A DNA stretch of 59,520 bases from a virus (lineage: Duplodnaviria > Caudoviricetes): the IMG/VR virus record IMGVR_UViG_3300024265_001017, positions 1 to 59,520 of that record, one strand, 5' to 3'. A program made the position numbers and the translations under genes. Below, in pieces: positions 186 to 58,665 of this stretch (positions are counted from its first letter, which is position 1; each line of letters opens with the position of its first letter). The notes below the pieces were generated by a model. That model saw only the letters and a list, made by a program, of their open reading frames with translations. It was not told where the DNA came from and made no database searches.

Positions 186-296
186 GTCATCAACCCCCTC
201 ATTGTTGAAACCGGGCAGTCCCAAGGCCCACAGTTGACCCACTCGCTACCGCCGTCGCGGAATCTGGTAAGCTCCCGTGTGGGGAGGGACTGCAAA

Positions 297-638
297 ATGT
301 TTGAGCTAACAAGCTACCTCCAGGTTTAATCTAGTGATAGCACTTAAAAGCTGCTCTCAGTGTAGTGGGACAGCTACTCCCAAAAGACTGCTCATTGCTT
401 TGTCGCTTACCAACCTAGCAGTTAGGTGTCCCTATTCTGACTGGGACATGTCAGCGTGTCACGTACAAACGCCCTGACACCGCGCCGCGCAACTATTGTA
501 CCCGTCTGTGGTAGTCTCGCCACTTAGACTCTCGGGGTATTTCAACCCCTGCCTCCCAAGCAGACTTACCCTCCAGTAGTATCCAGGCATTGCTTTTACC
601 GGCGTTGCCGAACGCGGGAGCTTGCTAGCTCAAAACAT
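297..638 (-). ncRNA. ~340-nt structured RNA domain with pseudoknot and T-loop-like hairpins
   Basis: 19-bp closing helix 297-315/619-638 (one bulge, one G-U on -). H-type pseudoknot at 427-454. Hairpins at 508-523 and 534-549. Confidence 0.65.
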
Positions 639-642
639 ATAG

Positions 643-707
643 AGGCGGCGCAAGGAATCGAACCTTGATTGAGGTCTGGGCGACCCCCTTTGCCAATTTA
701 ACCCGCC
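643..707 (-). ncRNA. tRNA-like element lacking a D-stem
   Basis: T-arm CAAGG-UUCGAUU-CCUUG, acceptor GGCGG/CCGCC (only 5 bp paired), hairpin GGGGUC-GCCCA-GACCUC, unpaired D region. Confidence 0.6.
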
Positions 708-2091
708 GAATCCTTGAGTACCTAGTGACCTATAGTTTCTGGTGTCTGTAACACCAGCGAACATGCGGGGCGAAAACCCCTACCACTTCCCTTCCTCAAG
801 GCAAAATCAATTGATAGCTGGCTGAGTTACACGCCGACAGAATCCGGCTCCTCTCCACTCCACATTACCTCACTCGCCACACACGGGGCAAGCTCTGCCC
901 ATCGTTCGGTCTCCGACCCCCATGTCAGAGTCCTACTAGAGAGGGCATCACTTGATACGCATGACACCGAGCTATCAAAACGCGCCGTGGGTACTCGCTC
1001 TCCACTTCCAGAGAGTTTGCCGATGCTCAGGACTTACCTTTGCGCTTTCCTCTTTGCCTGTCATCTTTTCGGGTACTAACTACAGCGCGTAGACCACCAT
1101 GAAACAAACATCTACACCCATGCGGCTTGGTCGTAGCCCGTAGAGGTTAGCATTGCCCTTCCCCACGAAAATGTATAAAATGTCCAAGCAAGCTGCCTAG
1201 CACCTAAACTCAAGGCTTTGAATCCCCATTCACCCGCTATTTAGGATGTTGGGTTGGAGAATCCGCTTGCTCGAAAACGTTCTGTCAGGAAACTATGCTC
1301 GAAACGTTGCCGTCCATACGCCGACAACACGACTCGCCGTGATGGGACGAGGAAGTGCCTGACAGTTAAAACTTTTATAAAGTGCTTGGTGGCGCTGCTC
1401 CATCTGCGAGTCCATCTGTGTAATCGGTCTCCGTTCGCATCTTGTTATGCCCAGCAGAGTGCCCGCGTTACCAAGCGGCTTTGTGCTTTTATAATCGAAC
1501 TGACCAGCGGGCCATCGTTGCACAGGTGATGTAATTTTAGGGCGCTTACCTGTTAGAAGACGTTGCCTATTATCCGCTGTTATCAGCTCGAAAGTGATTA
1601 TCAAAAGAGCAAGCGGCCCACAGTAGGTCTTGCGACCCCACCCCGGCGAAAAGTAGCTCACTTCCGCGCTCATAAACTTGGTCGAGCAGATGCTCTAGGT
1701 TACCCACTGTCGGCACCAAATCTTTGCGCTAAGTGCGGGAAACTGCATGGAACCTTCCAAGTCAAAGGGCGGTTACCCTAACCCTCGACCACTTGCCCCT
1801 CAGATAATCAGTTCTAAGCTTCAATAGATAACCCGACTGCCTACCCCGTAGCAGCCGCGGCCAAACCGGACAGCGCATAGGGCAGATTTTGTTTTCAAGG
1901 AAACTCAAGGCACCGCCTATTTCGCTCCGCGGAGCTACTTTGCGGTACTATTGTAGTCTTGCGGTCAATCGCAACACCGTCCAAGCGACCTCACGTTTCC
2001 GACCAGCTTCGTCTGTTTCAACTGCTTGGTGGCCGTTGCTTGGTTGTCGAGCTATCAATTAAAGCTCAGAACTTTTGTTATTGACTAGATT

Positions 2092-2519
2092 GTTTAGCAG
2101 GCAGTCTCCCGAGGTGCCCGCATCTCTATGTCAGGCATATTTTGTGCGGTATGTCGGTGGTCGCCGTCCTTACGTGTCAGCGGTTCAAAGGCGCTAAACA
2201 CATGTCAGACAATTTTCGGTGGCTTGACGGACTTACTACCTTCGCGCTTTCGCTTGAATGTGGTTGCCGTCTAAACTCTTCGACTTACTCCGCTCTGTTG
2301 CCTTGCTTTCAATGCTACCCTTGCTGCTTCACGGTCACGCTTTCAACGCTCGACCTTGCCCGCGGTGCGACGAATCGCTATCCATTATGACTTTTAAGCC
2401 AGCGGCTCTCTGTTGTAGTGTGACCACACACCGAAAACCTCGGTGCGGTCAGGAACTATCATATGGAGCTTTAGCTGGACTGCGCGAACTATTTACAGCC
2501 AAGAGGCTGCTTGCTAAAC
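2092..2519 (-). ncRNA. ~430-nt structured RNA domain
   Basis: Closing helix GTTTAGCA/TGCTAAAC. Nested helices 2109-2115/2437-2443 and 2213-2221/2429-2437. GCGA-UUCG-UCGC hairpin at 2367-2378 and two UUGAAAG T-loop-like motifs on -. Confidence 0.6.
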
Positions 2520-2694
2520 TTTCTAGTTTGTAATTCAATCGGCAGGTCAGACTTTCTTGTCAAGCCCTCTACTCAACTTTGAGGGTCTGTCCCTGTCGGG
2601 TCGCTACTAGCTCCCGATTGCCTTCCCACCGTTCCCCGTTTGTCTGGGGCTTTTCCTTCCCTTGAGCTTCTTTGGTTCTCTCTCTCTCGGTACA

Positions 2695-2700
2695 ATTATA
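2695..2700 (-). promoter_or_regulatory. candidate -10 box (TATAAT) for the RNA array
   Basis: Perfect TATAAT on - just upstream of the array. No good -35 at 17 bp spacing. Confidence 0.3.
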
Positions 2701-2894
2701 TCCTATCATATCTGGCCGGGAATACAAGCCGGGCCGTTAGCGCCTGCCGTGCGTATTTTCTCGATTTTTGAAAGATTTTTCGTCTTTTTCGGTAATACCG
2801 TGGGGGGTTTTAGTAGTCCCCCCGGTGGTTTAAGTTGTCAAAGTGCGTTATAATGTATGCACTATATATATACCCGCAAAGGAGGGAAAATAAC

Positions 2895-3443
2895 ATGCTT
2901 TACACAAAAAGTTTAGCCAAGGGTGACAAAGGCCCGAGCGTTGCGGATTTACAACGTCGAATTAACCACCATCATTTCAAAGTGGTCGGCCCAGATGACG
3001 GTCACTTTGGGGAGAATACAAAGATTGCCGTGGTACGTTTTCAAGATGCGTTCGGACTCGCACAAGATGGCGTAGTTGGCCCGAAGACCCAGAACAAGCT
3101 TATGGTTGGTGGTCAAGTCTCTGCTCATTTCAACATCTTCCACGATGTTCTTTACAGTCGAGGAAACGGTGACTTGATTCTACGCGGCGAGCTTATTCAC
3201 CGCTTAGAGGTAGTGCGCTCGATACTCGGCAACAAGCCAGTGATTGTAAACTCCTGTTTTAGGGACGAACGCTATAACTACATCATCGGTGGAGCAACCC
3301 GTTCCCAGCACAAGAAAGGAGCGGCTGGCGACATTGTTGTCATTGGTGTCAGTCCTACGGGCGTGGCAAATGCTGGAAGGCAGGCAGGCTTTAAGTTCAT
3401 CCAAGTTTATTCTGGATTTACGCACCTTGACATTCGCGCTTAA
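2895..3443 (+). CDS. endolysin: peptidoglycan-binding domain + M15-type Zn peptidase
   Basis: N-terminal L.KG.KG.SV..LQ...DG.FG..T..AV..FQ...GL..DGVVG..T (PG_binding_1). C-terminal SQH...A.DI...FTHLDIR. Start at MLYTK after an AGGAGG RBS. Confidence 0.9.
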   Translation: MLYTKSLAKGDKGPSVADLQRRINHHHFKVVGPDDGHFGENTKIAVVRFQDAFGLAQDGVVGPKTQNKLMVGGQVSAHFNIFHDVLYSRGNGDLILRGELIHRLEVVRSILGNKPVIVNSCFRDERYNYIIGGATRSQHKKGAAGDIVVIGVSPTGVANAGRQAGFKFIQVYSGFTHLDIRA

Positions 3444-8996: not shown

Positions 8997-9476
8997 ATGG
9001 CAGTAACAGAAGAAAGAACTGGTAGATTCGTTATCAAGCGAGTCAAGAATAAAGGCAACGACAACTACCGAACAATCGCCTTTGACGAGGACGACAAACA
9101 GGTAGGCAGCACTTTCGATGAAGAGATAGCCGACAAGCTTGCGGCATACCCAGAGGGTGCGGAGATAACTCTTGAACTTGATAAGAGCGGTCGGTTCTGG
9201 GATATTGTTGGCGCTCGCTTAGCCGATGAGGGAGACCAGAGCGGAGCTAAAGCTGAAAAGGCAGCGCCCAGTGGTGGGAGTAGCAGGCCCACATTCAACA
9301 ACAGGGACATGACCTATTTCATCGGTAGCTCAGCCCGAGTCATAGCGGCTCTTGTCCACGCATCTGAGGACTACAGAGACAAGATAGAGGACGCTACTGA
9401 CCCAGTTGAGGCAATTCATAAGGATATCGTTTTCGGGGCGAAACTCCTTTTCAATGAAGCGAACAAAGGTAGCTAA
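8997..9476 (+). CDS. hypothetical protein, possible OB-fold ssDNA-binding protein
   Basis: Strong AAGGAGG RBS, beta-rich N-terminus, lies directly before the primase. Confidence 0.5.
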   Translation: MAVTEERTGRFVIKRVKNKGNDNYRTIAFDEDDKQVGSTFDEEIADKLAAYPEGAEITLELDKSGRFWDIVGARLADEGDQSGAKAEKAAPSGGSSRPTFNNRDMTYFIGSSARVIAALVHASEDYRDKIEDATDPVEAIHKDIVFGAKLLFNEANKGS

Positions 9477-11431
9477 TGTACCCTGAATTAACTCTCTATA
9501 GAGAGCTTGGTTGGACGGCTTTTCCCCTCGCTAAGAGGGGGAAGCGTCCGACTGGTGACATAAAGTGGAAGTCATTGCAGACAACGGCACCCGACGATGA
9601 CCTATATGACCACTACTGCCGAAAGATTGAGCGCGAGGACATGAACATCGGCCTGGTCACTGGCAAACTTAGCAACCTATATGTGGTAGACTTTGATTAT
9701 GCACATGGCGGAGCAGAGACATTAAAAGAGCTATGTGATGATGGCACCATTGACTTACTCACTACGCCGAGCGTCGATACCCCACACGGCAAGCATGTGT
9801 ACTTTGCATTCCCCGCTGTCGAACTGCGAAACACTGCGGCGCGACTGCCGGGACTAGATACACGCGGCGAGGGCGGTTATGTTGTAGCGCCCCCAAGCAA
9901 GCTAGAGGATGGAGAGTACAGATGGTTTACGCCGTTAGAGGAACCAATCGACCTACCGGAAGTGCCAGTGGCGCTAGTGGAACTGTTAAACAAACCCGCA
10001 GTGGTAGCTGCCACCGGCTCGAACGAGTACGCTCCGCTGCTTGAGGGAGTAAGCGAGGGAGGGCGTAACAATTCAGCAGCTATCTTGGCTGGTCACTTCT
10101 TCAACAAGGGACTGTCTGCCGATGTGGTGCTTACTATCCTAAGAGACTGGAATGGAAGAAACGACCCACCGCTCAAGGAGACAGAGCTTGAGTCAGTGGT
10201 CGCTAACATCAAAGGCAAAGAAGTTGAAAAACGGACAGACAACCACCCCTCGCCTACCCAGTTTGACATACCCGACATACCCATACTGAGTGACTACGTT
10301 GATTTGGCGAGCGGTGCCATCCCCGCGCCGAAGAGTTACCATGTGATGTGTTGCTTGAGCTTGCTGTCCACACTGCTCTCTGAGAACGTGGCCCTATCGC
10401 TCAAGTCCGATTGGTTGTACCCCAATCTATATATTATGCTCTTGGCAGACACTACTTGGACATATAAGACGACAAGCATGAAACGCTCTTTGGCCCTACT
10501 GGACAAGGTGTACCCAGAAGCAGTAATCGGTAGTGGTGGGTCACCCGAAGGACTGTTCTATGCGCTGTCGGAAAGACAGGGAATATCTTCTCTCTTCTTT
10601 AGAGATGAAGCGGTCGGTTTCTTCTACGAGGCAGGCCAGAAGAATTATATGAGCGGGATGCTTGACAGTCTGACAAAGTTCTACGATTGCCAGTCGGAGC
10701 GTCGAGTACTCGCTGGTGACCAACGCCAGAACCAAGTCGTTCGTACTGTACACATTAGAGACCCGCGACTGTCCTTGATGGCAGGCGGCACCCTGACTCG
10801 TTTCTTCGATGTGATTGACGAGGACAAGATAATGGATGGTTTCTTGCCACGCTTCCTCTTCTCAGTTAAGGAAGGGAATGCGAGCAGTCTCCGCCCGTTG
10901 GAGATGGCAGACAATAAGTACACGCGGGACAGTGACATTCTACTCCAAAATATTATGGGCTTGTATCTCAAGGGCAAGCGGCAGATGACAACGACTCAGC
11001 CCGTGTTGGACATGCACCATGAATACATGGTCGAGCTTGTCACTAGCGAGCTTTCCAGATATGGTGGACGAGATTTCGGCGGCGTGTACAACCGGCTGGC
11101 GATAAGTGTCTTAAAGGTAGCCATGATATTGGCTTGTACAGAGGGGAAGCAAAAGGTGACATTGACAAAGAAACATTTACAGAACGCCATCTTGCTTGCC
11201 CAAGAGTGGAAGCAATCGCTAGACTTCATAATCAAAACGGTTGGTAAGCCGAGCAAAGAACGCATGTACGACAAGGTGCTTGGGCATCTTACGGACTGTG
11301 GAGGAACGACTACACGCTCCGCACTGATGAAACTGTTCCACTTGGAGAGCAGAGAGATGACGCGCATCGTTGACACCCTGCTTGACCGAGAGCAGATAGT
11401 TTGTAACGGAAAGCTGGTGAGCATAAGATAA
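9476..11431 (+). CDS. bifunctional primase-polymerase with PriCT and DUF3987-like domain
   Basis: FPL....KRP, NIGL.TG..S...VVD.D, T..G.H.YF, D.RG.GGYVVAPPS; G..EGGRNN (PriCT); KTT, SPEGL, DE, GFLPRF. Confidence 0.9.
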   Translation: MYPELTLYRELGWTAFPLAKRGKRPTGDIKWKSLQTTAPDDDLYDHYCRKIEREDMNIGLVTGKLSNLYVVDFDYAHGGAETLKELCDDGTIDLLTTPSVDTPHGKHVYFAFPAVELRNTAARLPGLDTRGEGGYVVAPPSKLEDGEYRWFTPLEEPIDLPEVPVALVELLNKPAVVAATGSNEYAPLLEGVSEGGRNNSAAILAGHFFNKGLSADVVLTILRDWNGRNDPPLKETELESVVANIKGKEVEKRTDNHPSPTQFDIPDIPILSDYVDLASGAIPAPKSYHVMCCLSLLSTLLSENVALSLKSDWLYPNLYIMLLADTTWTYKTTSMKRSLALLDKVYPEAVIGSGGSPEGLFYALSERQGISSLFFRDEAVGFFYEAGQKNYMSGMLDSLTKFYDCQSERRVLAGDQRQNQVVRTVHIRDPRLSLMAGGTLTRFFDVIDEDKIMDGFLPRFLFSVKEGNASSLRPLEMADNKYTRDSDILLQNIMGLYLKGKRQMTTTQPVLDMHHEYMVELVTSELSRYGGRDFGGVYNRLAISVLKVAMILACTEGKQKVTLTKKHLQNAILLAQEWKQSLDFIIKTVGKPSKERMYDKVLGHLTDCGGTTTRSALMKLFHLESREMTRIVDTLLDREQIVCNGKLVSIR

Positions 11432-13689
11432 TGGCTAAGAAGAAAGAGCCTGGTTGCACTGGCTGTTCCTTTCGAGGGAACAAGCGACTACTGCCTATGA
11501 TTGCCGAAGATGACGGCAACGGCATCCCTCTACGGACATTGTTTGTTGGGGAGTCACCCACATGGGACGATATGGAAGCTGGTAAGCTGGGAGAGGAAGA
11601 GCTGTTCAAGCAGATGGTCGAACGGTTCAAAATCTCCCGCTATGCGTTTACCAACGTGGCGCTATGTAACCCACCCAAGGACAAGAAGGCAAAGGTTGCC
11701 GAGGTAGAGAGCTGTTCCATATTTCTCGATGCTTTCATAGAGACCTGGCGACCGAATCAAATAGTCTGCTTGGGCAAGCTTGCTGCCCGAGCGATACTTG
11801 GGAAAGAAGTAGCGGCCCAGAAGATGTATAAGCTCCGCGAGCAGTCGCCCATCAGAATCAACGACAACACAGAGCAAGCGGCGAACGTCTTTGTCACTTA
11901 CAGCCCGAAGGCAGTATACAAGCGCCCGAAACTGATAGACGACTTTGTGGCTGACTTTGACTTTATAATGCACCCGCCTGTCCCTACGTGGATAGACCCA
12001 GCAAGCGAGTTTAAGAAGTCCCGCGCCGAGTGGCTTGCTTGGTATGGTGGATACACAGAGAATGGCGAGACAAGAGGCGATATCTTTCCAGAGGCATTTG
12101 CTGAGCCGTGCGCCCTTGACTTTGAGACAACGGGACTGCATCCGATACGCAACCGGCCAGTCACCATAGCGCTGTCTTGGTGGGCAGAGGAGTCCATTGT
12201 CGTCAACCTACACGACATGACAGACGAGGAGATGGCGCTCACTCTCCAAGAGATAGACGATTTGATAAGGCTGAGTGCTTGCGTTGTCTATCACAATGCA
12301 AAGTTCGATATGAAATTCTTCAAGCAGTGGGGTGGAATCAAACCCCCGCTGGGATGGGATACAAAGCTCGCTGATTACACGTTGACAGGAAACCCAGAGG
12401 CTAGCCGTGGGCTAAAGTATCTAGCGCGTAGAAAGATGTTTGCGCCAGCGTACAATGAGGACATAGTATTCGACGGGACGACACCCATTGAAGACATGGC
12501 AACCTATAATGGACAAGATTCATCAACCACTCTCCAGCTCTATGATATACAGCGCAAGCTCCATCCAGACCTCGACTTGTTGGAACACCTATACGAGTCT
12601 ACCGACATGCTTGTAGACGCTGAGTTGACGGGAGCGCCGGTTAAAGAAGAGTGGCTGGACGAGCGAGCAACCGTGTTGACTGAGGAGACTGACAGGCTCC
12701 AGGCAGAGTTCGATGCCGAAGAATTGAACCCAAATAGTTATAAGCAGATACGCGCATACTTTGATATAAAAGAGTCGGACAAGGAAGCGCTCAAAGAACT
12801 GAAAGACCCAATGGCAGATAAGATTCTCGCATTTCGAGCGAGCGCCAAAGAGCTTAGCACATATGTAACCGGATTCTCAGAGCATATAGTAGACGGTAGA
12901 GTCCATACGGACTACATAGTGCCAGGTACGTTGACTGGCAGGCTCGCATCACGCGGCCCGAACATGCAGAACCTAAAGGCAAGCGACGAGGCAGAGCATG
13001 ACTACCAGGCGGTAGTAGCATCGAACGACCCCAGCAAAAGGGTTGTTCACTTTGACTATAGCCAGGTTGAGATGCGAATAATGGGTATCGAGTCACTAGA
13101 TGAACGCCTGCTCGACGTATTTCAGAGCGGTCGGAGCATTCATGCCGAACTTGCTATCGAGATAAACGGTGAGAACTATACCGACCGCCAGTACACCAAT
13201 GCCAAGTCTGCGAACTTCGGTATCATTTATGGCATCAGTCCGTTCGGACTATCGCATCTTATGAAATCGACAGAAGAGGAAGCAGGCGTGTACTTGAACA
13301 CTTGGTACGACATGTATCCCCAAGTGAGCGTTTGGCAGCGCAAGATTAGAAAGCTGATTAAGGAACAGGGTTACGTTGAGACTCCGTTTGGTCGGCGCAG
13401 GCGCTTTGACCTTGAGGGCTTGGTAGTCAAGCAGTCTACCATTTTCCGAGAGGGAATCAACTTTCCCATCCAGAGTTTTGCTTGTGACGTTTATCTATCG
13501 GCTGCTCTGGCTATCTGGAAAGAGACTGGTGTCTACCCCATCCAACTAGTGCATGACGAGCTTGTCTATGAGTTGGATGTTTACGGGATAGATGATACAA
13601 TGGATTACATTAGCTGGAAGATGCGAAAGGTCGGAGAAGACTTAACTGGCAACGTGATACCTATACCAGCAGAAGTAAAGGGGGCTTGA
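11431..13689 (+). CDS. family A DNA polymerase with N-terminal UDG-like domain and 3'-5' exonuclease
   Basis: C..C, FVGESP, TNV.LC.PP, CLG..A (UDG4-like); DFETTG, HNAKFD, YN..D (exo); TGRLAS..PNMQN, DYSQVEMR, AK..NFGIIYG, VHDE (pol). Confidence 0.92.
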   Translation: MAKKKEPGCTGCSFRGNKRLLPMIAEDDGNGIPLRTLFVGESPTWDDMEAGKLGEEELFKQMVERFKISRYAFTNVALCNPPKDKKAKVAEVESCSIFLDAFIETWRPNQIVCLGKLAARAILGKEVAAQKMYKLREQSPIRINDNTEQAANVFVTYSPKAVYKRPKLIDDFVADFDFIMHPPVPTWIDPASEFKKSRAEWLAWYGGYTENGETRGDIFPEAFAEPCALDFETTGLHPIRNRPVTIALSWWAEESIVVNLHDMTDEEMALTLQEIDDLIRLSACVVYHNAKFDMKFFKQWGGIKPPLGWDTKLADYTLTGNPEASRGLKYLARRKMFAPAYNEDIVFDGTTPIEDMATYNGQDSSTTLQLYDIQRKLHPDLDLLEHLYESTDMLVDAELTGAPVKEEWLDERATVLTEETDRLQAEFDAEELNPNSYKQIRAYFDIKESDKEALKELKDPMADKILAFRASAKELSTYVTGFSEHIVDGRVHTDYIVPGTLTGRLASRGPNMQNLKASDEAEHDYQAVVASNDPSKRVVHFDYSQVEMRIMGIESLDERLLDVFQSGRSIHAELAIEINGENYTDRQYTNAKSANFGIIYGISPFGLSHLMKSTEEEAGVYLNTWYDMYPQVSVWQRKIRKLIKEQGYVETPFGRRRRFDLEGLVVKQSTIFREGINFPIQSFACDVYLSAALAIWKETGVYPIQLVHDELVYELDVYGIDDTMDYISWKMRKVGEDLTGNVIPIPAEVKGA

Positions 13690-37419: not shown

Positions 37420-38850
37420 TTATTCCTCCTTTTTGTCTTCGATTTTCTCAATCAGTGCCAACGTAGTAGTCAACACTTTGAGTTCGTCTTTCTTCGTTTT
37501 CTTCTTGCCTTTGCCCTTCTTCTTGGGCTTTGGCTTAGTTGTTTTCTTAACGTCCGTATCCTTAAAAGCCTCTTTGAAACTACCTTTCTTCTTTTCGTCA
37601 ACTAAAGGCTTGGTTTCTATCTTAGCGGCTTTCTTTGCTTTCTTCTCGACACGTTTCTTGATTGTCTCTTTTACAAGCTCTTCCTTTGGAATCAAGCCAA
37701 GACGGACAGCCTCAGTCTTTGGAATCCGCCTGCCTCTGCCATACAATAGACGACCGTTCTCTATCACCGGCTTAGTCAGTCGATACCAGAGCTTATTTTG
37801 GTCTTGCATGTCATCCTCTCCCTTCTCAACTGTTATCGGTTTCGCTTTCTGTGCCTTGAGTGCCGTGGCAATGACTTTCTCAATTATCGAGAGGTCATTC
37901 TCCATCACCTGCTCAAAGCGTAAACCGGGTGGAAAACTCGGGAGTTGAATCTTCTCCAAAGTAGACCGCTTAGTGTTTGGAACAGTAATACCCCAGCCAC
38001 CTTCAACGTATATTTTAGCACAGTTCCCTGCATGAAGTCCAATTGTGGGAATGCCAGCGGCTAGATAATCCCATGTCTTGTTAGGTCGGCAATACTGGGT
38101 GTATGCGAATTGCCTAGCGTTCACGTTGTCTTTGGCATACGCTTGTAAGCCAGCGGTGTATTGACTCATTTCTTGAAGCAAGTCTTCGTAGGGTATCCAA
38201 CCGTGTGCAATTATACCCTCAGGCTTAGCAAGTTCCCGTACAGTAGAATACTGGTTCTTGCTTCCATAGATATGCACTGTCCAACCTGCTTTCACAAAAG
38301 CTTGGAAAATACTTCGATAGTTTCTGTAGCCATAGTTACCGCCACCAGTTCTAACAAGCCCACCAGCATAGACTAAGTTCTTGTCTCCAGGGTACTTGGG
38401 CTTTGGATGCCAAGCGAGCATCTGCTTGAGTGGGCGGAGATGAACAACCCCCACATTATCCATTTTGTAGTGCATGTCTTCTCGGAGATATTTCAAGTGG
38501 TCTTCACTAGTGAATATAACACCGGCTGCGTTTTCGCACATCTCTTTTTCAATCGCCAACTGTCGAACATTGAGCTTGGTTCGTAGGCTGTGAACGTCTT
38601 GCTCGATTAAAACGTAGGGGATGCCATACATCCGTGGCAGTTGGTAGTATTTTAACCAATCACCACGGCAGAAGATAAGCTCTGGCTTGAGCTTTTGAAC
38701 GTCTTCCTTCCAATCTTGAATCACCCCAACTGCTCTTGGCGAGCGTAGGGTGACTCCACCGTATCGAGCCTGTAAAAGCGTAAAGTACTTATGGGCAGAA
38801 CCAACCGCCCAACTGTGTTGCTGTAGATAGCAAAAAACGGGGTCATGCAC
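37420..38850 (-). CDS. GT-B glycosyltransferase with Lys-rich C-terminal tail
   Basis: LVYAGG, HGWIPY..L...M, PNK..DYLAAGIP.I; K-rich last ~100 aa. Confidence 0.75.
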   Translation of the reverse strand: MHDPVFCYLQQHSWAVGSAHKYFTLLQARYGGVTLRSPRAVGVIQDWKEDVQKLKPELIFCRGDWLKYYQLPRMYGIPYVLIEQDVHSLRTKLNVRQLAIEKEMCENAAGVIFTSEDHLKYLREDMHYKMDNVGVVHLRPLKQMLAWHPKPKYPGDKNLVYAGGLVRTGGGNYGYRNYRSIFQAFVKAGWTVHIYGSKNQYSTVRELAKPEGIIAHGWIPYEDLLQEMSQYTAGLQAYAKDNVNARQFAYTQYCRPNKTWDYLAAGIPTIGLHAGNCAKIYVEGGWGITVPNTKRSTLEKIQLPSFPPGLRFEQVMENDLSIIEKVIATALKAQKAKPITVEKGEDDMQDQNKLWYRLTKPVIENGRLLYGRGRRIPKTEAVRLGLIPKEELVKETIKKRVEKKAKKAAKIETKPLVDEKKKGSFKEAFKDTDVKKTTKPKPKKKGKGKKKTKKDELKVLTTTLALIEKIEDKKEE

Positions 38851-39892
38851 GATTCAGCACCTCGGCTATTTTTTCTCCAGCGTGACCATCACCGTAAGGG
38901 TTCTTGGCAGTGGCAGCGTTGATATAGTGGATGGGGCTTGTCAGGAGCATTCGCGCTACCTCGACCATCTTGTTAGCGTCTGGTGCAAGAAAGGCTCCGC
39001 CAGTAAGTCCTTCGGGACGTTCGGTTTTCTCTCTGAGTACAATGACTGGCTTGTTTAGTGCGGGAGCTTCCTCTTGCAATCCCCCGCTGTCCGTCATTAC
39101 CATATAGCACCTAGCAAGTTCCTTTAGGAACTCTAGGTAGTGCATAGGTTCGAGCAGGTCAATCCCCTGCTTGCCCTCTAATTCGTGCTTGAGTTGCTGT
39201 CCGGTAGCGTTCGGATGTGTCAGCACCCTAAACGTTTTCTCTGGAAACTCCCTGGCAAGCTTGAGGATACCGGCAGAATACATGCCAACCGGCGCGTTCC
39301 TTCTATGGAGCGTCACCAAAACAGTAGGGTCGAGAGTATGCTTGGGGGCCAACTCATTGACAGCATCAATGACTGTGTTGCCAGTTATGTGAATTTCGTT
39401 GGCATCTCCGTAAGGCATCAAGCGTCTTAGGTTGGCCGCTGCTTGCTTCGTCGGAGCAAAGTGTAGATTGGCTACTGAGGAAATAAACATGCGGTAGACT
39501 TCTTCGGGCCATGGCTCGTATCTACAGAATGACCGCAAGCCTGCCTCTACGTGAGCAATCGGGACTCCCTGGTGAAACGCAACCATGGCTGTAGCGTAAG
39601 CTGTCGCCGTGTCGCCCTGTACTATCACGCGCTCGGGATTGCAGAACTCGATAATCCAAGACATGTAACAGATAATGGCATCTACTGTAGTGAGCAGCCG
39701 TTGGCCTGGCTTCATAAGGTTAAGCTCTGTGTCGGGAGTCATCAAGCTTTTGTCCAGCAGCTCTTTGTGCTGCCCTGTACAGACCACGTACTTATCTTCG
39801 GTTGCTCTCACAACTGGGTACAACTTGATAAGCTCTGGCCGTGTTCCATAAACGAATAGGTTCTTTCCCTTCATGGGTTTTTTGGTAGTCAT
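38843..39892 (-). CDS. wecB: UDP-N-acetylglucosamine 2-epimerase (non-hydrolysing)
   Basis: GTRPE.IK, TGQH, VQGDT, HVEAGLRS, PEE, TGNTVIDA, TLHRR, TDSGGLQEEAP, TERPEG, NPYGDG. Confidence 0.93.
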   Translation of the reverse strand: MTTKKPMKGKNLFVYGTRPELIKLYPVVRATEDKYVVCTGQHKELLDKSLMTPDTELNLMKPGQRLLTTVDAIICYMSWIIEFCNPERVIVQGDTATAYATAMVAFHQGVPIAHVEAGLRSFCRYEPWPEEVYRMFISSVANLHFAPTKQAAANLRRLMPYGDANEIHITGNTVIDAVNELAPKHTLDPTVLVTLHRRNAPVGMYSAGILKLAREFPEKTFRVLTHPNATGQQLKHELEGKQGIDLLEPMHYLEFLKELARCYMVMTDSGGLQEEAPALNKPVIVLREKTERPEGLTGGAFLAPDANKMVEVARMLLTSPIHYINAATAKNPYGDGHAGEKIAEVLNRA

Positions 39893-40653
39893 CTTGTTTT
39901 GGGACAGTCAGTAAGCAGTTTGTCGTTTATCTTCTTAGCTGCCGTCAGCAACCCACGACCGATATCTGATTGTAACAAGATATCCAGGTCTTTCGGCAAG
40001 CACTTTCCACCGCCGCCCCTTCCTCCTTTATTAAATATTTCCATATATTTTCCGCTGTTGAATTTGTTGGCTCTTTGGGGAGCGATTACCTTGCTGTAGT
40101 CTATCTCCCGTTTCTCACAGAGGTCATACAGCTCATTGAAAAATACAAGCTTGATAAGGGGGTAGACATTCGATACAAGCTTAATCAGCTCAGCCTCTTT
40201 CGGCTCCACAAAGTAGCGTGGGCCTTCTAAGTTTGTAAAGAGAATCGTGTTGGCATAGCGGGAATATTCGTCATCGACTGCGCCAAAGACTATGTGGTCT
40301 GGTCTCAGAAAGTCACTGAGCGGCGAGTCTTCCCGTAAGAACTCGGGCATGAATACTATCTTCACGCCGGGATACATACTCTGTAACTGCTCGGTCTCTC
40401 CAACTTCGATAGTCGTCTTGATAATGACAAGCTTACCAACCATCTTTTCGATAAGCGTCCCATCACTAACTCGGCCATCTTTGTCATTAACACAATAGAA
40501 CAGCACATCCGCGTCCCGTACTGATTGACTGTCAGGAGATGCAACGAACCCCTTGTAGGGGTCATGGATTGTGAAGTCTGTGTGACCAAGCGCTTCGAGA
40601 CCATCATGGAGAGTGCTACCTACCATGCCGTGTCCCTGGATAAGAATTTTCAT
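39889..40653 (-). CDS. UDP-glucose/GDP-mannose dehydrogenase family protein (lacks C-terminal domain)
   Basis: G.G.VG, PEFLRE, AELIK...N, GG.CLPKD. Confidence 0.85.
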   Translation of the reverse strand: MKILIQGHGMVGSTLHDGLEALGHTDFTIHDPYKGFVASPDSQSVRDADVLFYCVNDKDGRVSDGTLIEKMVGKLVIIKTTIEVGETEQLQSMYPGVKIVFMPEFLREDSPLSDFLRPDHIVFGAVDDEYSRYANTILFTNLEGPRYFVEPKEAELIKLVSNVYPLIKLVFFNELYDLCEKREIDYSKVIAPQRANKFNSGKYMEIFNKGGRGGGGKCLPKDLDILLQSDIGRGLLTAAKKINDKLLTDCPKTR

Positions 40654-40689
40654 GTTATCGCCTATCTTTGGTTGGGTACATTACTGTTG

Positions 40690-40718
40690 ATTATACCTTA
40701 CGACCAGGCGGAAGTCCA
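40690..40718 (-). promoter_or_regulatory. sigma70-type promoter
   Basis: TGGACT-17 bp-TATAAT. Confidence 0.55.
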
Positions 40719-41428
40719 CAGAGACTCCGAACGTAAGGGTGCATCTCAATTTTCTTGCCCTTGCTTGCTGTCGTGATTGTGCTGCATCTGTTCAAAACCC
40801 AGTTGCTCTTGTGAATCACCTGTACCCACTCCCGACTCTCAAGGATGGTAAGCGGATAGTATCTCCACATCCAGGTATGGTTGCGCTCATAGACGTTCCG
40901 TAGGTCGCCTGCCCTCGAAACGAGCGTTGTGAAGGGGGATGTGCATTCTTCGTGATGAACCGTATCCTCGTAGAATGTTTTGTTGCGAACATCCAAGCGA
41001 TAGCCCAAGAACTCATAGAGTCCCGGCTCGGTCGCTAGTTCCTGCATATGCTCAATGTAGGTCGGCATCATTATATCGTCGTTATCTATACGAGTCATCA
41101 AAATCAACTCGTCCTCGTTTGCGGTATTTCTGATGAAGTCCATGTAAGCGGTTGTCATTGTAGTGGGCAGAGGAGCGTCACAATCTTCCCCAAAGAATTT
41201 AGCGCCTGGTACATCGACTTCGGGGTTGCCCAGAATCAACCAGCGGAAGTCTTGACACGTTTGTCCCAGAATAGAGGGCTTGGTAAACTGATTGAACAGC
41301 TCTATTCGGTGTTTCACATAGCCTTTTGGCCCCAGCTTAGCTCGGCCAAGAAAGTTTTGCTTGCCCTTTGCATTAGCGGCTTTTAGGTCTGGGCTGTAGT
41401 GAAACCGGGTGACAATGAAGTGCCTCAT
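40691..41428 (-). CDS. putative glycosyltransferase (rhamnosyltransferase-like, GT-A)
   Basis: HFIVTRF, R..LF..F..PS..GQT.QDF.W, TRIDNDD, QVIH..N. Confidence 0.8.
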   Translation of the reverse strand: MRHFIVTRFHYSPDLKAANAKGKQNFLGRAKLGPKGYVKHRIELFNQFTKPSILGQTCQDFRWLILGNPEVDVPGAKFFGEDCDAPLPTTMTTAYMDFIRNTANEDELILMTRIDNDDIMMPTYIEHMQELATEPGLYEFLGYRLDVRNKTFYEDTVHHEECTSPFTTLVSRAGDLRNVYERNHTWMWRYYPLTILESREWVQVIHKSNWVLNRCSTITTASKGKKIEMHPYVRSLCGLPPGRKV

Positions 41429-42003
41429 ACCAATACAACGCCAAAATTCACAGACGGGTGGAGGTACTTAACTTCAAACTTCTCAAAGTCGCCCTCAAGC
41501 TCGTCCCAGAATCTACGCATACCTGTCTTAACGCCGACTGGGTACTCTTCCAACCAAACGTCATCGAACAGCATAATGCCACCCTTTTTCATCTTGGGCA
41601 ACCAAGCGTGTGTATCTGACTTTACATCTTCATACAGGTGGTTGGCATCTATGAAGCAGATATCAACCGTGCCGTCTTCGACTTGTGCCGCGTACTCTGT
41701 AGCGTCACAAATCACACCCTCGACGTTATGGGCAAACAAGCGGTCTTCTATCTTTTGCGTTCGCTTGATATCGACGGTGATGATTCGCGCATCTTTTGTG
41801 CCGTGGCGGAAGTGTAACGCGCCGACACCCTGGTTGGTTCCCAACTCGACAATCAACTCTGGGTGAGTCTGTTGGCCGAGATGGACGAAAAGCTTGTAGT
41901 AGTGAAAAGAGTTTGGTCGCCTGATAAGGTCTCTGAGAACCTTCGGGCGCTCGTCTACTGTCTTTGTCAGCTCCACAAGCTCCATAAATCGTTCTCTGTC
42001 CAT
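41425..42003 (-). CDS. class I SAM-dependent methyltransferase (Methyltransf_24-like)
   Basis: IVELGT..G, D..FIDA.H.YE.V..D...W...M..GG...FDD. Confidence 0.88.
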   Translation of the reverse strand: MDRERFMELVELTKTVDERPKVLRDLIRRPNSFHYYKLFVHLGQQTHPELIVELGTNQGVGALHFRHGTKDARIITVDIKRTQKIEDRLFAHNVEGVICDATEYAAQVEDGTVDICFIDANHLYEDVKSDTHAWLPKMKKGGIMLFDDVWLEEYPVGVKTGMRRFWDELEGDFEKFEVKYLHPSVNFGVVLV

Positions 42004-47812: not shown

Positions 47813-47889
47813 TGGGCCACATGCAGGCATCGAACCTGCGACCTTCCGCTTACAAGGCGGATGCTCTGCCGGGTCTGAGCTAATGTGGC
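47813..47889 (-). tRNA. tRNA-Thr(UGU)
   Basis: GCCACAU/AUGUGGC acceptor, GCUC/GAGC D-stem, UCCGC-CUUGUAA-GCGGA, GCAGG-UUCGAUG-CCUGC. Confidence 0.92.
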
Positions 47890-47953
47890 ACAATGCTTGG
47901 TAGCCGCTTCGCCAACTTTCCCCTGGAGGATAGGCGCGTGTACCAAGCACTTG

Positions 47954-48024
47954 TTCTAGGTGCTGGGGTCGAACCAACGTTACCGGATTCAAAGTCCAGC
48001 GTCCTACCATTAGACGAACCTAGA
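47954..48024 (-). tRNA. tRNA-Gln(UUG)
   Basis: UCUAGGU/ACCUAGA acceptor (U1-A72), CUGGA-CUUUGAA-UCCGG, GUUGG-UUCGACC-CCAGC. Confidence 0.9.
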
Positions 48025-48614: not shown

Positions 48615-50129
48615 TTAGTTAGCTGGATACCAATAGTCTATCTGTTCATTAGCGACTTCCTTTGGCTGTCTCTTTGAGCCGCCTGGCACTATTATATCAT
48701 TAACTGCGGTCATGTTGTCAATCGGCGCGTAGACCAGCATTAAGCCGTCAGCCTTATCGGGAGAGCGCCCAATCTCTTTCTTTATCTGGTCTTTCTTTAG
48801 CACCCTCACCTTGCCGTTGATAATGTTGTACTTGGTAGCGCATAACTCCTCTTTTGTTTCCTCGTCAATGTTCGCGGCTATCTTGTCGTTCACGTAAATT
48901 TTTCTGAGATGCCAGTAGAACTCCGACCGCTGATTGGCACAGTCGTCATCCCCACTCTTTCCGTTCCCTGTATACTCGAAGACGTTGAGCTTTTTCTGTA
49001 TCCGTAACATATCGGCAACTCCCGCTCCAATACCAACCGCATCTACAGCGACCGGGGCTGAGGGGTCAACTCTGCGTATAATATCTCCAGCCCATTCGGT
49101 CAAACTCACCAAGTCAAATTTATGGAACTCTTTTGTAATCTCTAGTCGCTCGCCGCGGCGGTATCTCAGAATTGAGCTATCGCGTCCCAGCCGTGCAACG
49201 TCAAGCCCCCACTGATTTGTGCCGTGTGTCGAGCCGTTCCTCTTCTGAGCTTGTATGATTTTGTCAAGGGGGATAAGGGAATCGACCGCGCCGGTCGGGA
49301 ACTCACCAAATACCTTGGCTATGAAGAGGGGATTGCTCTCTCCGCCCCACTCGATGTACTTTCTACCGACCCATGCTGGGTGAATGAGCGCCGGGAAGGG
49401 CACTTTCTTACCTTCGAGCTTGCCTTCCCAGTCTCCAGTCCGTATATCGTCCATTGTTATACCCATCTCCAGAAAGTTCGGGGTATCGAACGCGCTGATT
49501 GTGAATTTTTTGAAGTGAGCCATTTCATGTGAGTGGAAGAAGTAGCCGGTAAGTGAATCTGGGTTGGATATCAGTAGCATCCTCGAATGCTCACCAGTCA
49601 TCAGTGTGGAGAGCGCATCAAAGACGGGCATTGGGATACCGGCAGCTTCATCGGCAACCAAGAGAAAGTTCAAAGAGTGGAATCCCTGAAAGTTTATCTC
49701 GTCATCCGATGCAAACCCCAGCGCAAAGTGGTCAGGGGCGATTTTAAGCCCTTTAGTAAGCACCCGCCATATCCAAGGGTAGGGTGGATTCGCTTTAGCG
49801 AACTGTGTATTGATTTCAGCCCACAATAAATTCTCTATCTGATTATTAGTTGTTGCCGTTGTCATAACTTTGGAGGGAACGTAGCCCTGGAGGAAAAGCA
49901 GAACAACGGTCGCCGCGAGAAATGTCTTACCGCTCGCGTGACAGGACTTTACGGTTACAAAGGGGTTATTGAAACAAGCTTCTATAATCTCTTGTTGGAT
50001 TTGCCAGTACTTATACGGAAAGCGGGTCTCTGCATACTGAACCGGCGTTTGTCTACATGCCCTGCGGTTCAACAGTTCCCGCTTATACTCCGTTATCTTT
50101 TGCTGTTTTTGTTTTTCACTCAGATTCAT
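48615..50129 (-). CDS. terL: terminase large subunit
   Basis: VKSCHASGKT (Walker A), VADEA (Walker B), ISNP, GLDVAR.G.D, VDA.G.G, SPD.AD. Confidence 0.93.
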   Translation of the reverse strand: MNLSEKQKQQKITEYKRELLNRRACRQTPVQYAETRFPYKYWQIQQEIIEACFNNPFVTVKSCHASGKTFLAATVVLLFLQGYVPSKVMTTATTNNQIENLLWAEINTQFAKANPPYPWIWRVLTKGLKIAPDHFALGFASDDEINFQGFHSLNFLLVADEAAGIPMPVFDALSTLMTGEHSRMLLISNPDSLTGYFFHSHEMAHFKKFTISAFDTPNFLEMGITMDDIRTGDWEGKLEGKKVPFPALIHPAWVGRKYIEWGGESNPLFIAKVFGEFPTGAVDSLIPLDKIIQAQKRNGSTHGTNQWGLDVARLGRDSSILRYRRGERLEITKEFHKFDLVSLTEWAGDIIRRVDPSAPVAVDAVGIGAGVADMLRIQKKLNVFEYTGNGKSGDDDCANQRSEFYWHLRKIYVNDKIAANIDEETKEELCATKYNIINGKVRVLKKDQIKKEIGRSPDKADGLMLVYAPIDNMTAVNDIIVPGGSKRQPKEVANEQIDYWYPAN

Positions 50130-50674: not shown

Positions 50675-50703
50675 ATTATATCACTTGCCACCCTTACTAT
50701 CAA
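50675..50703 (-). promoter_or_regulatory. strong sigma70-type promoter for the tRNA-Gly-like RNA and terminase
   Basis: TTGATA-17 bp (ending TGA)-TATAAT; predicted +1 at about 50668-50667. Confidence 0.7.
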
Positions 50704-51463
50704 TCTTCCGCTTCGGATACTCAACGGTGAGCGGTTTCACGTATGTCATAATCCGCTCCCGCTCCTTGCCAGTCGCAAGAACATAAACGTACCGCCACTT
50801 GGGGTTGGTTCGGTTCTCCTTCCAACCGGCTGCAAGGAACTTTTGCCGTAGTTGGCTCCACGATAGGTTCGGGCATTTGTTAATCTTCGTGTCGTGTATA
50901 ATCTTCTGGTCGTAAATTTTGCCGTTTGGATGTATGAGCTGAGTGGTACGCCCGCCCTTCCCTATACAAATCCAATTGGTCGCTTGATATAGGGTTCCTA
51001 TTTCGCCTGCATCGGTGTCCGAGTAGGCTATCGCTATTTTGCGGCCTTTCTTTTTCTCCATCTTCAATGAGTAAGAAATGAGCTTGCTTCCCGTGCCCTT
51101 CGGTGTCCAATGGGTACATGCACCGCGGGCAAGGTAGGCCATCTCTCGCTGGTCAACCCCCAATTGCTCCGCTACCCGGTTCCCAGCCGGGCTACCAAAG
51201 CAGCAAACACCACCGCAGTAGTACTTATCGAAGAATATACCGTAGTATGTACGGCAAATAGGTAGTGTACCAAGCCATTCGTAGTGCAAAATGATTTTCT
51301 GGGCCACTTTACGGGTGGTCTGCCTCACTTTCGCTGATTTAAGGTGAGGTTCACCGCTTGGACGGGGGGCAACGTCCGCTTTCGACGGGTCTGCGGCGAT
51401 TTGCTCCCGTATTTGGCGCTGATACGCCTTATTTGACGCTTTCTCCCTAAAAGTCTGTCCCAT
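50681..51463 (-). CDS. mom: Mom-family (GNAT-fold) DNA adenine hypermodification protein
   Basis: G...FG.P, L.R......P....S.LI..SL, AYSD...GE.GT.YQATNW..IG, K.RYVY.L, YPK. Confidence 0.8.
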   Translation of the reverse strand: MGQTFREKASNKAYQRQIREQIAADPSKADVAPRPSGEPHLKSAKVRQTTRKVAQKIILHYEWLGTLPICRTYYGIFFDKYYCGGVCCFGSPAGNRVAEQLGVDQREMAYLARGACTHWTPKGTGSKLISYSLKMEKKKGRKIAIAYSDTDAGEIGTLYQATNWICIGKGGRTTQLIHPNGKIYDQKIIHDTKINKCPNLSWSQLRQKFLAAGWKENRTNPKWRYVYVLATGKERERIMTYVKPLTVEYPKRKIDSKGGK

Positions 51464-52011
51464 TAGCCGATATCCGCCTCTATTTCATACTTTTCGAGCA
51501 ATTCAAAGAGGTCTTCCCGTACAGCGTCAAAGTCAGCGACCGCAAATGTAAGAATCACCGAGTCGTCCGGTGAGGGTTCGGCCCCACCACCAGGCAACAT
51601 GCTCTGGTTGAACTGGGCAGTGAGCTTTTGTATCTCCTTCGTGTCAAAGCCCGTCACCTCTACATCCGGCAGCTTCACCTCAAGCTCTGTAAGCAAGTCT
51701 GTGAGTTTCGGGATATCCCAGCCGCCCCCTATCTTGTTTAGAGCGAGGTTGAGTGCCTTCTCCTTCTCCACTGTCAGGCTAACGATACTAACGGTCACTA
51801 CCTCGTCGCCCCGAGCCTGCAATATCTTGAGGCGTTGGTGACCGCCCACAAGGTTGCCGGTCTTCTCGTTCCAGATTAGAGGCTCAACCAAGTCGAACTC
51901 TTCCAGTGACTTCACCAACTTGTCGTAGTCTGGGTCACCAGGCTGTAGGTCTTTGCGCGGGTTGTACTCCGCTGGATTGATTAGACCGATTGAAATATCC
52001 TTTATCTCCAC
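51463..52011 (-). CDS. ParB/Srx-like N-terminal domain protein
   Basis: PA.YNPRK.L.PGD..Y.KL..S..EF..VEP..WN..TG.LVGGHQRLK.L...EKALN.ALNKI.G.WD. Confidence 0.88.
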   Translation of the reverse strand: MEIKDISIGLINPAEYNPRKDLQPGDPDYDKLVKSLEEFDLVEPLIWNEKTGNLVGGHQRLKILQARGDEVVTVSIVSLTVEKEKALNLALNKIGGGWDIPKLTDLLTELEVKLPDVEVTGFDTKEIQKLTAQFNQSMLPGGGAEPSPDDSVILTFAVADFDAVREDLFELLEKYEIEADIG

Positions 52012-57997: not shown

Positions 57998-58190
57998 TGC
58001 TGCACCCCCCAACGTTTCGATGTAACAGCCACAGTGAACGTGGTTGCTTACCGAGTACATAGTGTCACCAGCACAATTAGAAAACCGATGTACAGCAAAG
58101 CAACTGCTATATACTCAGCACCATCTCTATACCTAAATCCTTTCATACGTGCATCCTATCACATTGTTACGTTTTTTGCACCATAAAAAA

Positions 58191-58408
58191 CTAACTATTA
58201 GATAGATTTGTGAACTGCCAAATCGTATCCATTACTGGCATAATACAACAATCAAGCACCTGCACAATATATCGAATGCTCTGCACGTTAAGTCCACGAT
58301 ATTTGCCTGTTCCCCCCTGTCCCTTTCGGTAGCTTGTCTGGTGAGTTACGCTTTGTCATCACACAAAGCTAACTAAGAATAGGCTTGTGAACTGCCAAGT
58401 CGTATTCA
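58191..58408. repeat. two-copy ~40-bp motif (58191-58231 and 58369-58408)
   Basis: Identical TTGTGAACTGCCAA core; shared CTAACTA and TCGTAT flanks. Confidence 0.8.
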
Positions 58409-58450
58409 AAGCGACAATAAAGTCGCGCTCTAAAATGATTAGTGTAATGC

Positions 58451-58659: not shown

Positions 58660-58665
58660 TAGCTA

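Follow-up and report, generated by a model that had tools for sequence, protein, structure and literature searches.

A mosaic, non-coding tract in a tailed phage genome most likely encodes several new structured RNAs

Background

Polycistronic operons for stable RNAs are represented by the ribosomal RNA (rRNA) and transfer RNA (tRNA) operons and by the tRNA cluster of phage T4, which includes two extra stable RNAs. Double-strand-specific ribonucleases (RNases) cut mismatched helices containing G·U pairs in rRNA precursors and in the early RNA of phage T7, in which RNase III processing stems separate the messenger RNAs. Here we analyze a tract of approximately 2.5 kb, 3-4 times longer than the large RNAs GOLLD, ROOL and OLE, that is located near one end of a tailed phage genome, between a small open reading frame (ORF) at positions 42-185 and a putative leftward promoter region. 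The genome is the IMG/VR record IMGVR_UViG_3300024265_001017, a linear sequence of 59,520 nucleotides (nt) with an estimated completeness of 88%, hereinafter the window. We find that the tract is non-coding, that most of its structural signal is specific to the minus strand, and that it most likely encodes several new structured RNAs. The interpretation that we favor, at roughly even chances, is that a leftward early transcript consists of about nine independently folded domains, which form a mosaic among related phages, are probably cut into stable RNAs and may act in trans.

The tract does not encode proteins

All six reading frames of the tract are interrupted by stop codons (32, 24 and 33 in the plus-strand frames and 44, 49 and 38 in the minus-strand frames, each of approximately 840 codons). 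The longest ORF within the tract, on the minus strand (1293-1673), comprises 126 amino acids, and none of the five longest ORFs has a Pfam match at E<=0.01. Recoding does not open the tract: all single-stop and two-stop reassignments leave it closed, with a maximum of 256 open codons for a single-stop reassignment. In the contig L011, a metagenomic relative described below, the largest ORF in positions 257-1450 is at most 61 amino acids long; the nominal ORF at 2-256 of this contig was rejected, as it lacks similarity to the window. The translated similarity between the tracts of the window and L011 (tblastx) is the same in all frames, which indicates that the conservation is at the nucleotide rather than at the protein level. 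The initial annotation of this region, made from the sequence alone, had found no ORF led by a ribosome-binding site in it, and the stop codons, the Pfam search and the comparison with L011 all bear out that the tract is non-coding.

Conserved and covarying blocks in a metagenomic relative

A blastn search detected no homologs of the tract in GenBank phages. Searches of IMG/VR with the endolysin, a DUF932 profile, the primase-polymerase (prim-pol), two exact motifs from the modules and one degenerate pattern from the leader retrieved nothing, and neither did the search of GTDB genomes with the DUF932 profile. A GTDB sequence with a 20-mer match (L013) has only those 20 bases in common with the window and was discarded as a chance match. 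A single scan of metagenomes with the DUF932 profile, which was built from 20 homologs, yielded 10 contigs; L011 (3,970 nt) is the only one of these that reaches into the tract, and L009 covers only its first ~110 nt. L011 carries the same lysin, intervening genes and DUF932 gene as the window, along with a tract without ORFs that extends over at least 1,215 nt up to the contig end.

The window segments that BLAST aligned with L011 are 989-1021 (91% identity), 1302-1469 (74%), 1597-1672 (88%), 1723-1808 (75%), 2125-2156, 2332-2416 (78%) and 2561-2696 (72%). Altogether, about 616 nt of the shared range, which spans 1,712 nt (window 989-2700), are alignable with L011, and approximately two thirds are not. 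Given that only 43% of the third codon positions in the lysin gene and 46% in the DUF932 gene are identical between the two sequences, the 72-91% identity implies that the aligned blocks are under purifying selection at the nucleotide level.

The RNAalifold consensus energy of each block was compared with the energies of 100 column shuffles, and seven coding blocks from the same two sequences served as controls. On the minus strand, the z-scores were -8.2 for 1580-1825 (module C in the map below), -3.7 for 1276-1482, -5.2 for the leader at 2535-2700 and -3.9 for the core of module A (2290-2440); the observed value was reached by none of the 100 shuffles in each of these four blocks, and the coding controls ranged from -2.03 to +1.86, on either strand. 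The plus-strand value for the core of module A was -2.6.

The individual base pairs point in the same direction. Among the 55 consensus pairs of module C, five show double changes and six one-side changes, none is broken, and the GCAA tetraloop of this module is replaced by GUAA, still a GNRA loop, in L011. Helices are predicted in L011 at the places of the closing helices of module C (637-601/493-457, score 45) and module A (1047-1018/668-639, 30 base pairs (bp), score 47), the arms of the latter sharing no sequence with those in the window; inside module A, the UUCG hairpin corresponds to a fully compensated hairpin with four double changes. The closing helix of the unit at 1384-1476 is kept in L011 with two double changes. 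For the unit at 1282-1365, the L011 counterpart, located by BLAST coordinate mapping, is a 10-bp helix of different sequence (265-274/343-352), with four double changes in the closing helix and two in the inner hairpin. In the three-sequence alignment of the leader hairpins, double changes occur in 7 of the 16 pairs, and one sequence is unpaired in 7 of the 16. Judged from these alignments, base pairs in the tract appear to be maintained by compensatory substitution beyond the null expectation, as is characteristic of a conserved structured RNA.

The same comparison shows that whole domains have been gained, lost or replaced between relatives. Module B (1810-2073) is missing altogether from L011, in which the module A arm is directly followed by that of module C, at 639/637; the unit at 1495-1591 is missing together with its linker, such that window 1470-1596 corresponds to 12 nt, and both losses coincide exactly with helix-closed units; and window 1022-1301 is replaced by unrelated sequence. 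Contigs from the probable source sequencing run that match the tract at >=80% identity comprise 49 pieces, 29 of which fit only in part; stretches of the tract are missing at their joints (35>1383, 801>1030, 1058>1512 and others), and the depth is uneven, with bin means of 9-94. These joints fit the presence, in the same sample, of related genomes that share single modules; because all these contigs come from one sample, they do not provide independent support for modularity. When the variants from these unlinked contigs were mapped on the predicted minus-strand fold, six of the single changes listed kept a pair and about 10 broke one.

Long closing helices define about nine domains

Four long imperfect helices were detected on the minus strand of the tract, namely 2073-2046/1837-1810 (score 55), 1820-1787/1618-1585 (54), 2527-2499/2112-2084 (42) and 634-616/318-300 (39). 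In 40 shuffles, the maximum helix score averages 32.6, with a top value of 45, and the 44 control strand-windows of equal size from the same genome never contain more than one helix scoring >=38, with a top score of 46. At 19-34 bp, the four helices that close domains far exceed what chance would produce. Perfect inverted repeats of at least 8 nt number 17 in the tract compared with 10.8 +/- 3.2 in dinucleotide shuffles (17 was attained in 8 of 200), and the short closing stems of 7-9 bp are unremarkable as a class, with a frequency near that expected by chance.

In the global minus-strand fold, the tract resolves into nine exterior domains. The initial annotation had parsed it into about 15 self-contained modules; the closing stems that were inspected are present (215-293, 297-638, 811-978, 1183-1275, 1282-1365, 1384-1476, 1495-1591, 1679-1791 and 2092-2519), but the count has to be lowered to about nine, and modules B and C each merge two of the originally delimited units. 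Folded one by one, the 16 originally delimited units reach z <= -2 in 7 cases on the minus strand and in 9 on the plus, compared with 2 of 40 random control segments, a comparison that is biased because the units were selected by their stems. The structured and modular nature of the tract at the RNA level, which was part of the same annotation, finds support in the column-shuffle z-scores, the closing helices and the presence or absence of whole units in L011. The hexanucleotide TTGAAA occurs five times on the minus strand of the tract compared with ~0.9 expected at the genome-wide rate, a weak excess that is suggestive only. A common GCAAGC/GCUUGC core of the closing helices was considered and rejected (6 observed, 3.8 expected).

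Read on the minus strand, as all the features below except where stated, the map begins with a leader block, P (2528-2694), which opens with the purine-rich stretch GAGAGAGAGAGAACCAAAGAAG...GGAAGGAAAAG, continues into two hairpins (the first at 2649-2634) and is 72% identical to L011 1075-1211. Module A (2084-2527, ~444 nt) is closed by the 29-bp imperfect helix 2527-2499/2112-2084, and its conserved core (2332-2416) contains the GCGUUGAAAGCG hairpin and the UUCG hairpin. Module B (1810-2073, 264 nt) has a 28-bp closing helix, 2073-2046/1837-1810, that scores 55 on the minus strand versus 38 on the plus strand, a fold z-score of -5.45 on the minus strand (reached by none of 40 shuffles) and -3.73 on the plus strand, and encompasses, as sub-domains, the originally delimited units 1837-1885 and ~1900-2045. 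Module C (1585-1820, 236 nt) is closed by a helix of ~34 bp, 1820-1787/1618-1585, that scores 54 on the minus strand versus 25 on the plus strand, with single-sequence z-scores of -3.64 and -0.65, respectively; the units 1607-1671 and 1679-1791 are its sub-domains, and a hairpin at 1640-1627 carries the GCAA tetraloop. The assignment of the GCAA and UUCG loops to the minus strand was correct, and the loops are found at 1633 and 2374. The same 11 nt, 1810-1820, form the 3' arm of the module B helix and the outer 5' arm of the module C helix, so that the two helices are partly mutually exclusive; in L011, which lacks module B, there is no such arm overlap.

Three smaller helix-closed units follow. 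In the unit at 1495-1591 (97 nt), an exterior domain of the global fold, either strand gives an end-to-end fold, with a z-score of -2.9 for the minus strand; the unit at 1384-1476 (93 nt) is ambiguous with respect to the strand (z = -3.25 plus, -2.18 minus); and the unit at 1282-1365 (84 nt) has a perfect 8-bp closing helix. The domains within 700-1275 are less certain. The units originally placed there (712-801, 811-978, 980-1090 and 1183-1275) have z-scores of -0.9 to -2.9 and closing stems of 7-11 bp that are individually near chance, the global fold merges them into 1132-700 and 1480-1135, and only 989-1021 (91% identity) is conserved in L011. The element at 642-707 is best described as tRNA-like: it has a T-arm, CAAGG-UUCGAUU-CCUUG, and a 5-bp acceptor-like stem, and lacks a D-arm and a 7-nt anticodon loop. 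Module D (297-638, 342 nt) is closed by the 19-bp helix 634-616/318-300 (score 39 minus, 34 plus; fold z = -2.6 minus, -2.9 plus) and has no homolog. The last unit before the first gene, 215-293 (79 nt), also without a homolog, has a perfect 8-bp closing helix and a z-score of -3.69 on the minus strand, which none of 100 shuffles reaches, versus -1.58 on the plus strand. Altogether, seven units are supported by the long-helix statistics, by the comparison with L011, or by both.

Strand and promoters

Most of the structural signal is specific to the minus strand. The consensus (alifold) energy of module C is -63.9 on the minus strand versus -33.0 on the plus strand, with 23 G·U cells versus 1, and that of the core of module A is -24.5 versus -15.1. 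The minus-strand fold includes three GNRA tetraloops and one UUCG tetraloop among 16, and the plus-strand fold has none among 10. The GC and AT skew of the tract match those of the minus-sense gene block. Both relatives have consensus-like promoters that point into the tract, at 1242-1215 of L011 (minus strand, TTGACA-16-TATACT, 11 of 12 matches) and at 146-119 of L009 (minus strand, TTGACA-16-TATAAT, 12 of 12 matches, with the TG element), and each has a second strong minus-strand promoter upstream. In the three-way alignment, the two promoters fall at the TATAAT region of the window, where the putative leftward promoter region (2695-2727, minus strand) consists of TTGTAT at 2727-2722, TAGGAT at 2705-2700 with a 16-nt spacing, and an overlapping TATAAT at 2700-2695. 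Transcription that enters the tract leftward, as originally proposed, is thus plausible. The G·U pairs, skew, tetraloops and promoters of the relatives all favor the minus strand, in agreement with the original reading of the tract as mostly, if not unanimously, minus-stranded.

The tract does not belong to a recognized RNA family

At the gathering thresholds, the scan of the whole window against Rfam detected only the two tRNAs at 47.8-48.0 kb. At E<=10, the tract yielded four sub-threshold matches, the best of which, to the mascRNA model at 642-707, scored 22.6 bits compared with a gathering threshold of 42.5; modules A and D scanned singly gave nothing better, and the L011 tract gave no matches. 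We take the scanned library to include GOLLD, ROOL, OLE, raiA, 6S, tmRNA (transfer-messenger RNA), RNase P, riboswitches and self-cleaving ribozymes; its ribozyme models had no match in the tract. The statement that the tract could not be matched to any known RNA family, originally made without database searches, has thus withstood the covariance-model scan proposed along with it. In the literature consulted, including a term search of the article PMC10690425, no description of such an array turned up.

Several more specific candidates were rejected. A 12-bit match to group-II-D1D4-6 (gathering threshold 49) at 2182-2394 on the minus strand, with no match to the other intron models, does not make a group II intron. 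With respect to a tRNA array, ARAGORN in the standard mode calls no genes in the tract, and the element at 642-707 is called in the relaxed or mitochondrial mode only; no tmRNA or two-piece tmRNA was detected by ARAGORN. A repeat array of the CRISPR, TIGR or ToxI type is not compatible with the direct repeats in the tract, which are only 11-16 nt long, in two or three copies, with irregular spacing. Similarly, a miniature inverted-repeat transposable element (MITE)-like origin was rejected for module A, the arms of which are unrelated between the window and L011 with an interior that is 78% identical; no flanking direct repeats were seen on inspection.

A processed early transcript and the alternatives

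The favored interpretation can be laid out as a series of steps. A sigma-70-type promoter beside the divergent early region would drive RNA polymerase leftward, and ~2.5 kb of untranslated RNA would be made before the first small ORF, 42-185. The predicted RNA would consist of about nine independently folding domains of 80-450 nt, the 5' and 3' ends of each being paired. The long imperfect helices that close the domains could be RNase III-type processing stems, by analogy with rRNA operons and T7 early RNA, and the A/U-rich linkers and the tRNA-like element at 642-707 might be entry points for RNase E/Y and RNase P/Z. It is the form of the helices (19-34 bp, with mismatches and G·U pairs), together with these linkers and the tRNA-like element, that leads us to think that the precursor is cut, probably into several stable RNAs with protected ends, 80-450 nt long, early in infection. 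Because the content of the tract is mosaic among relatives with shared flanks, as in phage tRNA arrays and accessory islands, we favor a role in trans: the RNAs might help to take over the host or to counter its defences, with RNA-binding proteins or nucleases of the host as the targets of RNA decoys or scaffolds. This is the least supported step, and we propose it with low confidence. A more specific version, which we consider possible but clearly on the speculative side, is that the tract is a mosaic early 'RNA island' of at least eight unrelated, undescribed RNAs that are excised by their own helices, are exchangeable between relatives, and work in trans against RNA-binding proteins of host defence or housekeeping, serving as decoys, sponges or self-assembling scaffolds.

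Several observations weigh against the interpretation of the tract as a processed leftward precursor. In the search of sequencing runs, only the probable source DNA run carries the tract, and no RNA run does. A Pfam scan of 44 of the 85 predicted ORFs revealed no reverse transcriptase, Ro-like/TROVE or other RNA-handling protein. The TATAAT hexamer at 2700-2695, from which the initial annotation started the precursor, is present, and the consensus promoters of the relatives align there, but it lacks an acceptable -35 element in the window: TTGTAT, the only hexamer resembling a -35 box, is 21 nt away, and the promoter scan does not list the site. The unit at 1384-1476 has two G·U pairs that are kept in both sequences and exist on the plus strand only; together with its better plus-strand score, this agrees with the earlier assessment that this unit favors the plus strand. 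For module A in the window, both the closing helix (score 51 plus, 42 minus) and the unit fold (z = -4.1 plus, -2.9 minus) are stronger on the plus strand. The first hairpin of the leader block has a T-rich tail and resembles a plus-strand terminator; it is present at 2634-2659 of the window, 1149-1172 of L011 and 48-74 of L009, ~50-60 nt inside the right end of the tract; it is followed by CTTTTCCTTC or CTTTTCCTCA, its stems covary in the three sequences, and it faces out towards the divergent promoters. If the tract is transcribed leftward, this hairpin is explicable only as a 5'-proximal hairpin after the conserved GAGGAAAAG.

The statistical support is also uneven. The covariation rests on two or three sequences, and the per-pair shuffle control for module C, with its two sequences, is modest, the observed values being reached in 10 of 500 shuffles. 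L011 covers window 989-2700, and the left ~800 nt (215-988) have no homolog at all. The original expectation that strand-specific folding would exceed that of shuffled controls holds for the long helices but not for the short stems, which are near chance, nor for arbitrary 150-nt windows, which fold no better than shuffles. For the whole tract, the z-score of the minimum free energy is -3.5 on the minus strand and -3.1 on the plus strand (13 shuffles each), and three coding controls gave -2.84, -0.70 and +1.31 (8 shuffles each); given the control at -2.84, energy alone does not single out the tract.

The foremost alternative, in our assessment unlikely, is that most or all of the 2.5 kb is a single giant ornate RNA in which the modules are swappable peripheral domains, comparable to expansion segments or to the half that varies in very large RNAs of bacteria and phages. 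The single promoter region is in accord with this possibility, as are the terminator-like sites inside the tract, which are no more common than in shuffles (3 found, 3.3 expected), and the arm overlap between modules B and C at 1810-1820; the GNRA and UGAAA-type loops could form tertiary contacts within such a molecule. This account is, however, difficult to reconcile with the loss or replacement of whole domains in L011 next to intact neighbors, with the global fold, which is a string of exterior domains without any conserved inter-domain helix, or with the failure of about two thirds of the shared range to align.

We assign a comparably low likelihood to the possibility that the tract is a cis-acting 5' leader that gives rise to no trans-acting RNAs and instead shields the transcript from Rho or RNases, times or attenuates the leftward operon, or mediates antitermination. 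The tract does lie between the promoter and the first ORF preceded by a Shine-Dalgarno (SD) sequence, on the same strand, and the RNA of the minus strand is rich in G (0.29), poor in C (0.23) and heavily paired in the predicted fold; such RNA disfavors Rho loading. Against this, a mosaic of modules amid shared flanks fits accessory cargo better than it fits a tuned regulator, and, to our knowledge, 2.5 kb far exceeds the length of any leader.

Transcription of some or all modules rightward, ending at the hairpin with the T-rich tail (2634-2659), appears improbable. It would account for the conservation and covariation of this hairpin in the window, L011 and L009, for the plus-only G·U pairs of the unit at 1384-1476 and for the better plus-strand scores of module A in the window, and a promoter-like site with 10 of 12 matches is found on the plus strand at 1468-1495. 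Modules B and C and the core of module A, as well as the skew and the tetraloops, nevertheless favor the minus strand, and the promoter scan found no plus-strand promoter in the L011 tract.

Slightly less probable still is a function at the DNA level, whereby the tract would be an origin of replication, a region for packaging or recombination, or a graveyard of MITE-like inverted repeats. Inverted repeats are many, units bounded by them are inserted or deleted between relatives, and several helices score alike on both strands. The helices, however, depend on G·U pairs, which become A·C mismatches on the opposite strand, and thus do not represent true palindromes in the DNA; iterons or families of direct repeats beyond chance matches of 11-16 nt were not found; and the terminal arms of homologous modules differ completely and the interiors are conserved, which is the reverse of what is seen in transposon ends. 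Finally, a neutral spacer or decayed genes with chance stems can practically be dismissed, despite the near-chance frequency of the short stems and the unremarkable local fold z-scores, because the aligned blocks are 72-91% identical compared with 43-46% at synonymous-like sites, helices appear to be maintained by compensatory change, and the translated similarity, being equal in all frames, is not at the protein level.

Genome setting

The window belongs to a phage with a tail. The genes for the large terminase (48615-50129), portal, prohead protease, major head protein and tape measure protein are on its minus strand, and those for replication are on the plus strand, namely prim-pol (9476-11431) and a family A DNA polymerase (11431-13689). 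The genes are oriented in the plus direction from 2.9 to 19.3 kb and in the minus direction from 19.5 to 59.5 kb. The tract sits between the plus-strand block, in which it is flanked by the lysin gene (2895-3443, PG_binding_1 and Peptidase_M15_3 domains) and the DUF932 gene, and the small minus-strand ORF 42-185 near the contig end; read on the minus strand, it is at the head of leftward genes. This first downstream ORF encodes a basic protein of 47 amino acids without a Pfam match and is preceded by GAGGGGG; the contig terminates 41 nt beyond its stop codon.

Several other features of this genome deserve mention. The family A polymerase is a single protein of 752 amino acids with an N-terminal domain of the uracil-DNA-glycosylase superfamily and a 3'-5' exonuclease domain. 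A sugar-modification cluster at 37420-42003, flanked by the head and tail genes, consists of glycosyltransferase-like, UDP-glucose/GDP-mannose dehydrogenase-like, rhamnosyl-transferase-like and methyltransferase genes and suggests glycan modification of the virion or the host surface. At 50681-52011, adjoining a small-terminase-like gene, a Mom-family protein (E = 1.8e-23) and a ParB_N-like protein are encoded, a pair that suggests DNA modification. Two tRNA genes of the minus strand, Thr (TGT) and Gln (TTG), lie at 47814-48024, between the genes for the portal and the terminase. A second ORF-poor stretch of ~640 nt (58060-58700) is found amid small minus-strand genes; it has no Rfam match at E<=1 and contains a pair of 30-nt direct repeats (58202-58231 and 58379-58408) that have 87% identity, are separated by 177 nt and could be operator or promoter repeats.

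The GenBank phage with the most similar terminase is BK063673.1 (33% identity), which is labelled with a Methanosarcinales host; no tract comparable to that of the window was found in its first 20 kb. Despite this label, the peptidoglycan-binding M15 lysin, the SD-led genes and the sigma-70-type promoters in the relatives indicate a bacterial host.

Implications

Phage genomes are almost wholly coding, and a non-coding tract of 2.5 kb that appears to be kept by compensatory mutation is rare; the conservation of such a tract implies RNA functions for which the phage pays. If the modules are separate stable RNAs, they would add several new families at once and would represent natural production of multiple RNAs by helix-guided processing; modules A and D are big enough for complex tertiary folds. 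Should these RNAs counter host systems, RNA-based counter-defence would extend beyond tRNAs and repeat mimics. Under the more specific 'RNA island' proposal, ~4% of the genome would be devoted to an RNA counterpart of the protein anti-defence islands, with several new RNA families, two of them in the size class of 340-440 nt.

Comparison with known systems

The 5' and 3' stems of about two helical turns that enclose each RNA in stable-RNA operons have likely counterparts in the tract, in which four helices of 19-34 bp enclose domains and two of these helices are kept in L011. As in the rRNA and tRNA operons and the T4 cluster, unrelated, predicted structured RNAs line up on a single strand downstream of one promoter region, with their ends paired; the flanking stems are of the length cut by RNase III in rRNA precursors, a tRNA-like element is present, and, as in such operons including the T4 cluster, the content varies between related phages. 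Unlike these operons, the tract contains no rRNA or functional tRNA and no member of a known family, and it constitutes an untranslated leader before protein genes. With the T7 early RNA, the tract shares the imperfect double-stranded stems, known here from predicted folds, that would punctuate an early polycistronic phage transcript, but the stems of the tract enclose non-coding structured domains. The element at 642-707 has the canonical T-arm and the acceptor-like stem of mascRNA and of the tRNA-like domains of bacterial Y RNAs, and differs from them in its sub-threshold score (22.6 bits versus 42.5 for mascRNA) and in that no Ro/TROVE protein is found among the 44 of 85 ORFs scanned. Finally, like GOLLD, ROOL and OLE (compare PMC12286853 and PMC5737381), the tract is large, ORF-free, multi-domain and phage-borne, with GNRA loops; in contrast to these RNAs, it has no match to their covariance models even at E<=10 and appears to be built from exchangeable units rather than on a single conserved architecture.

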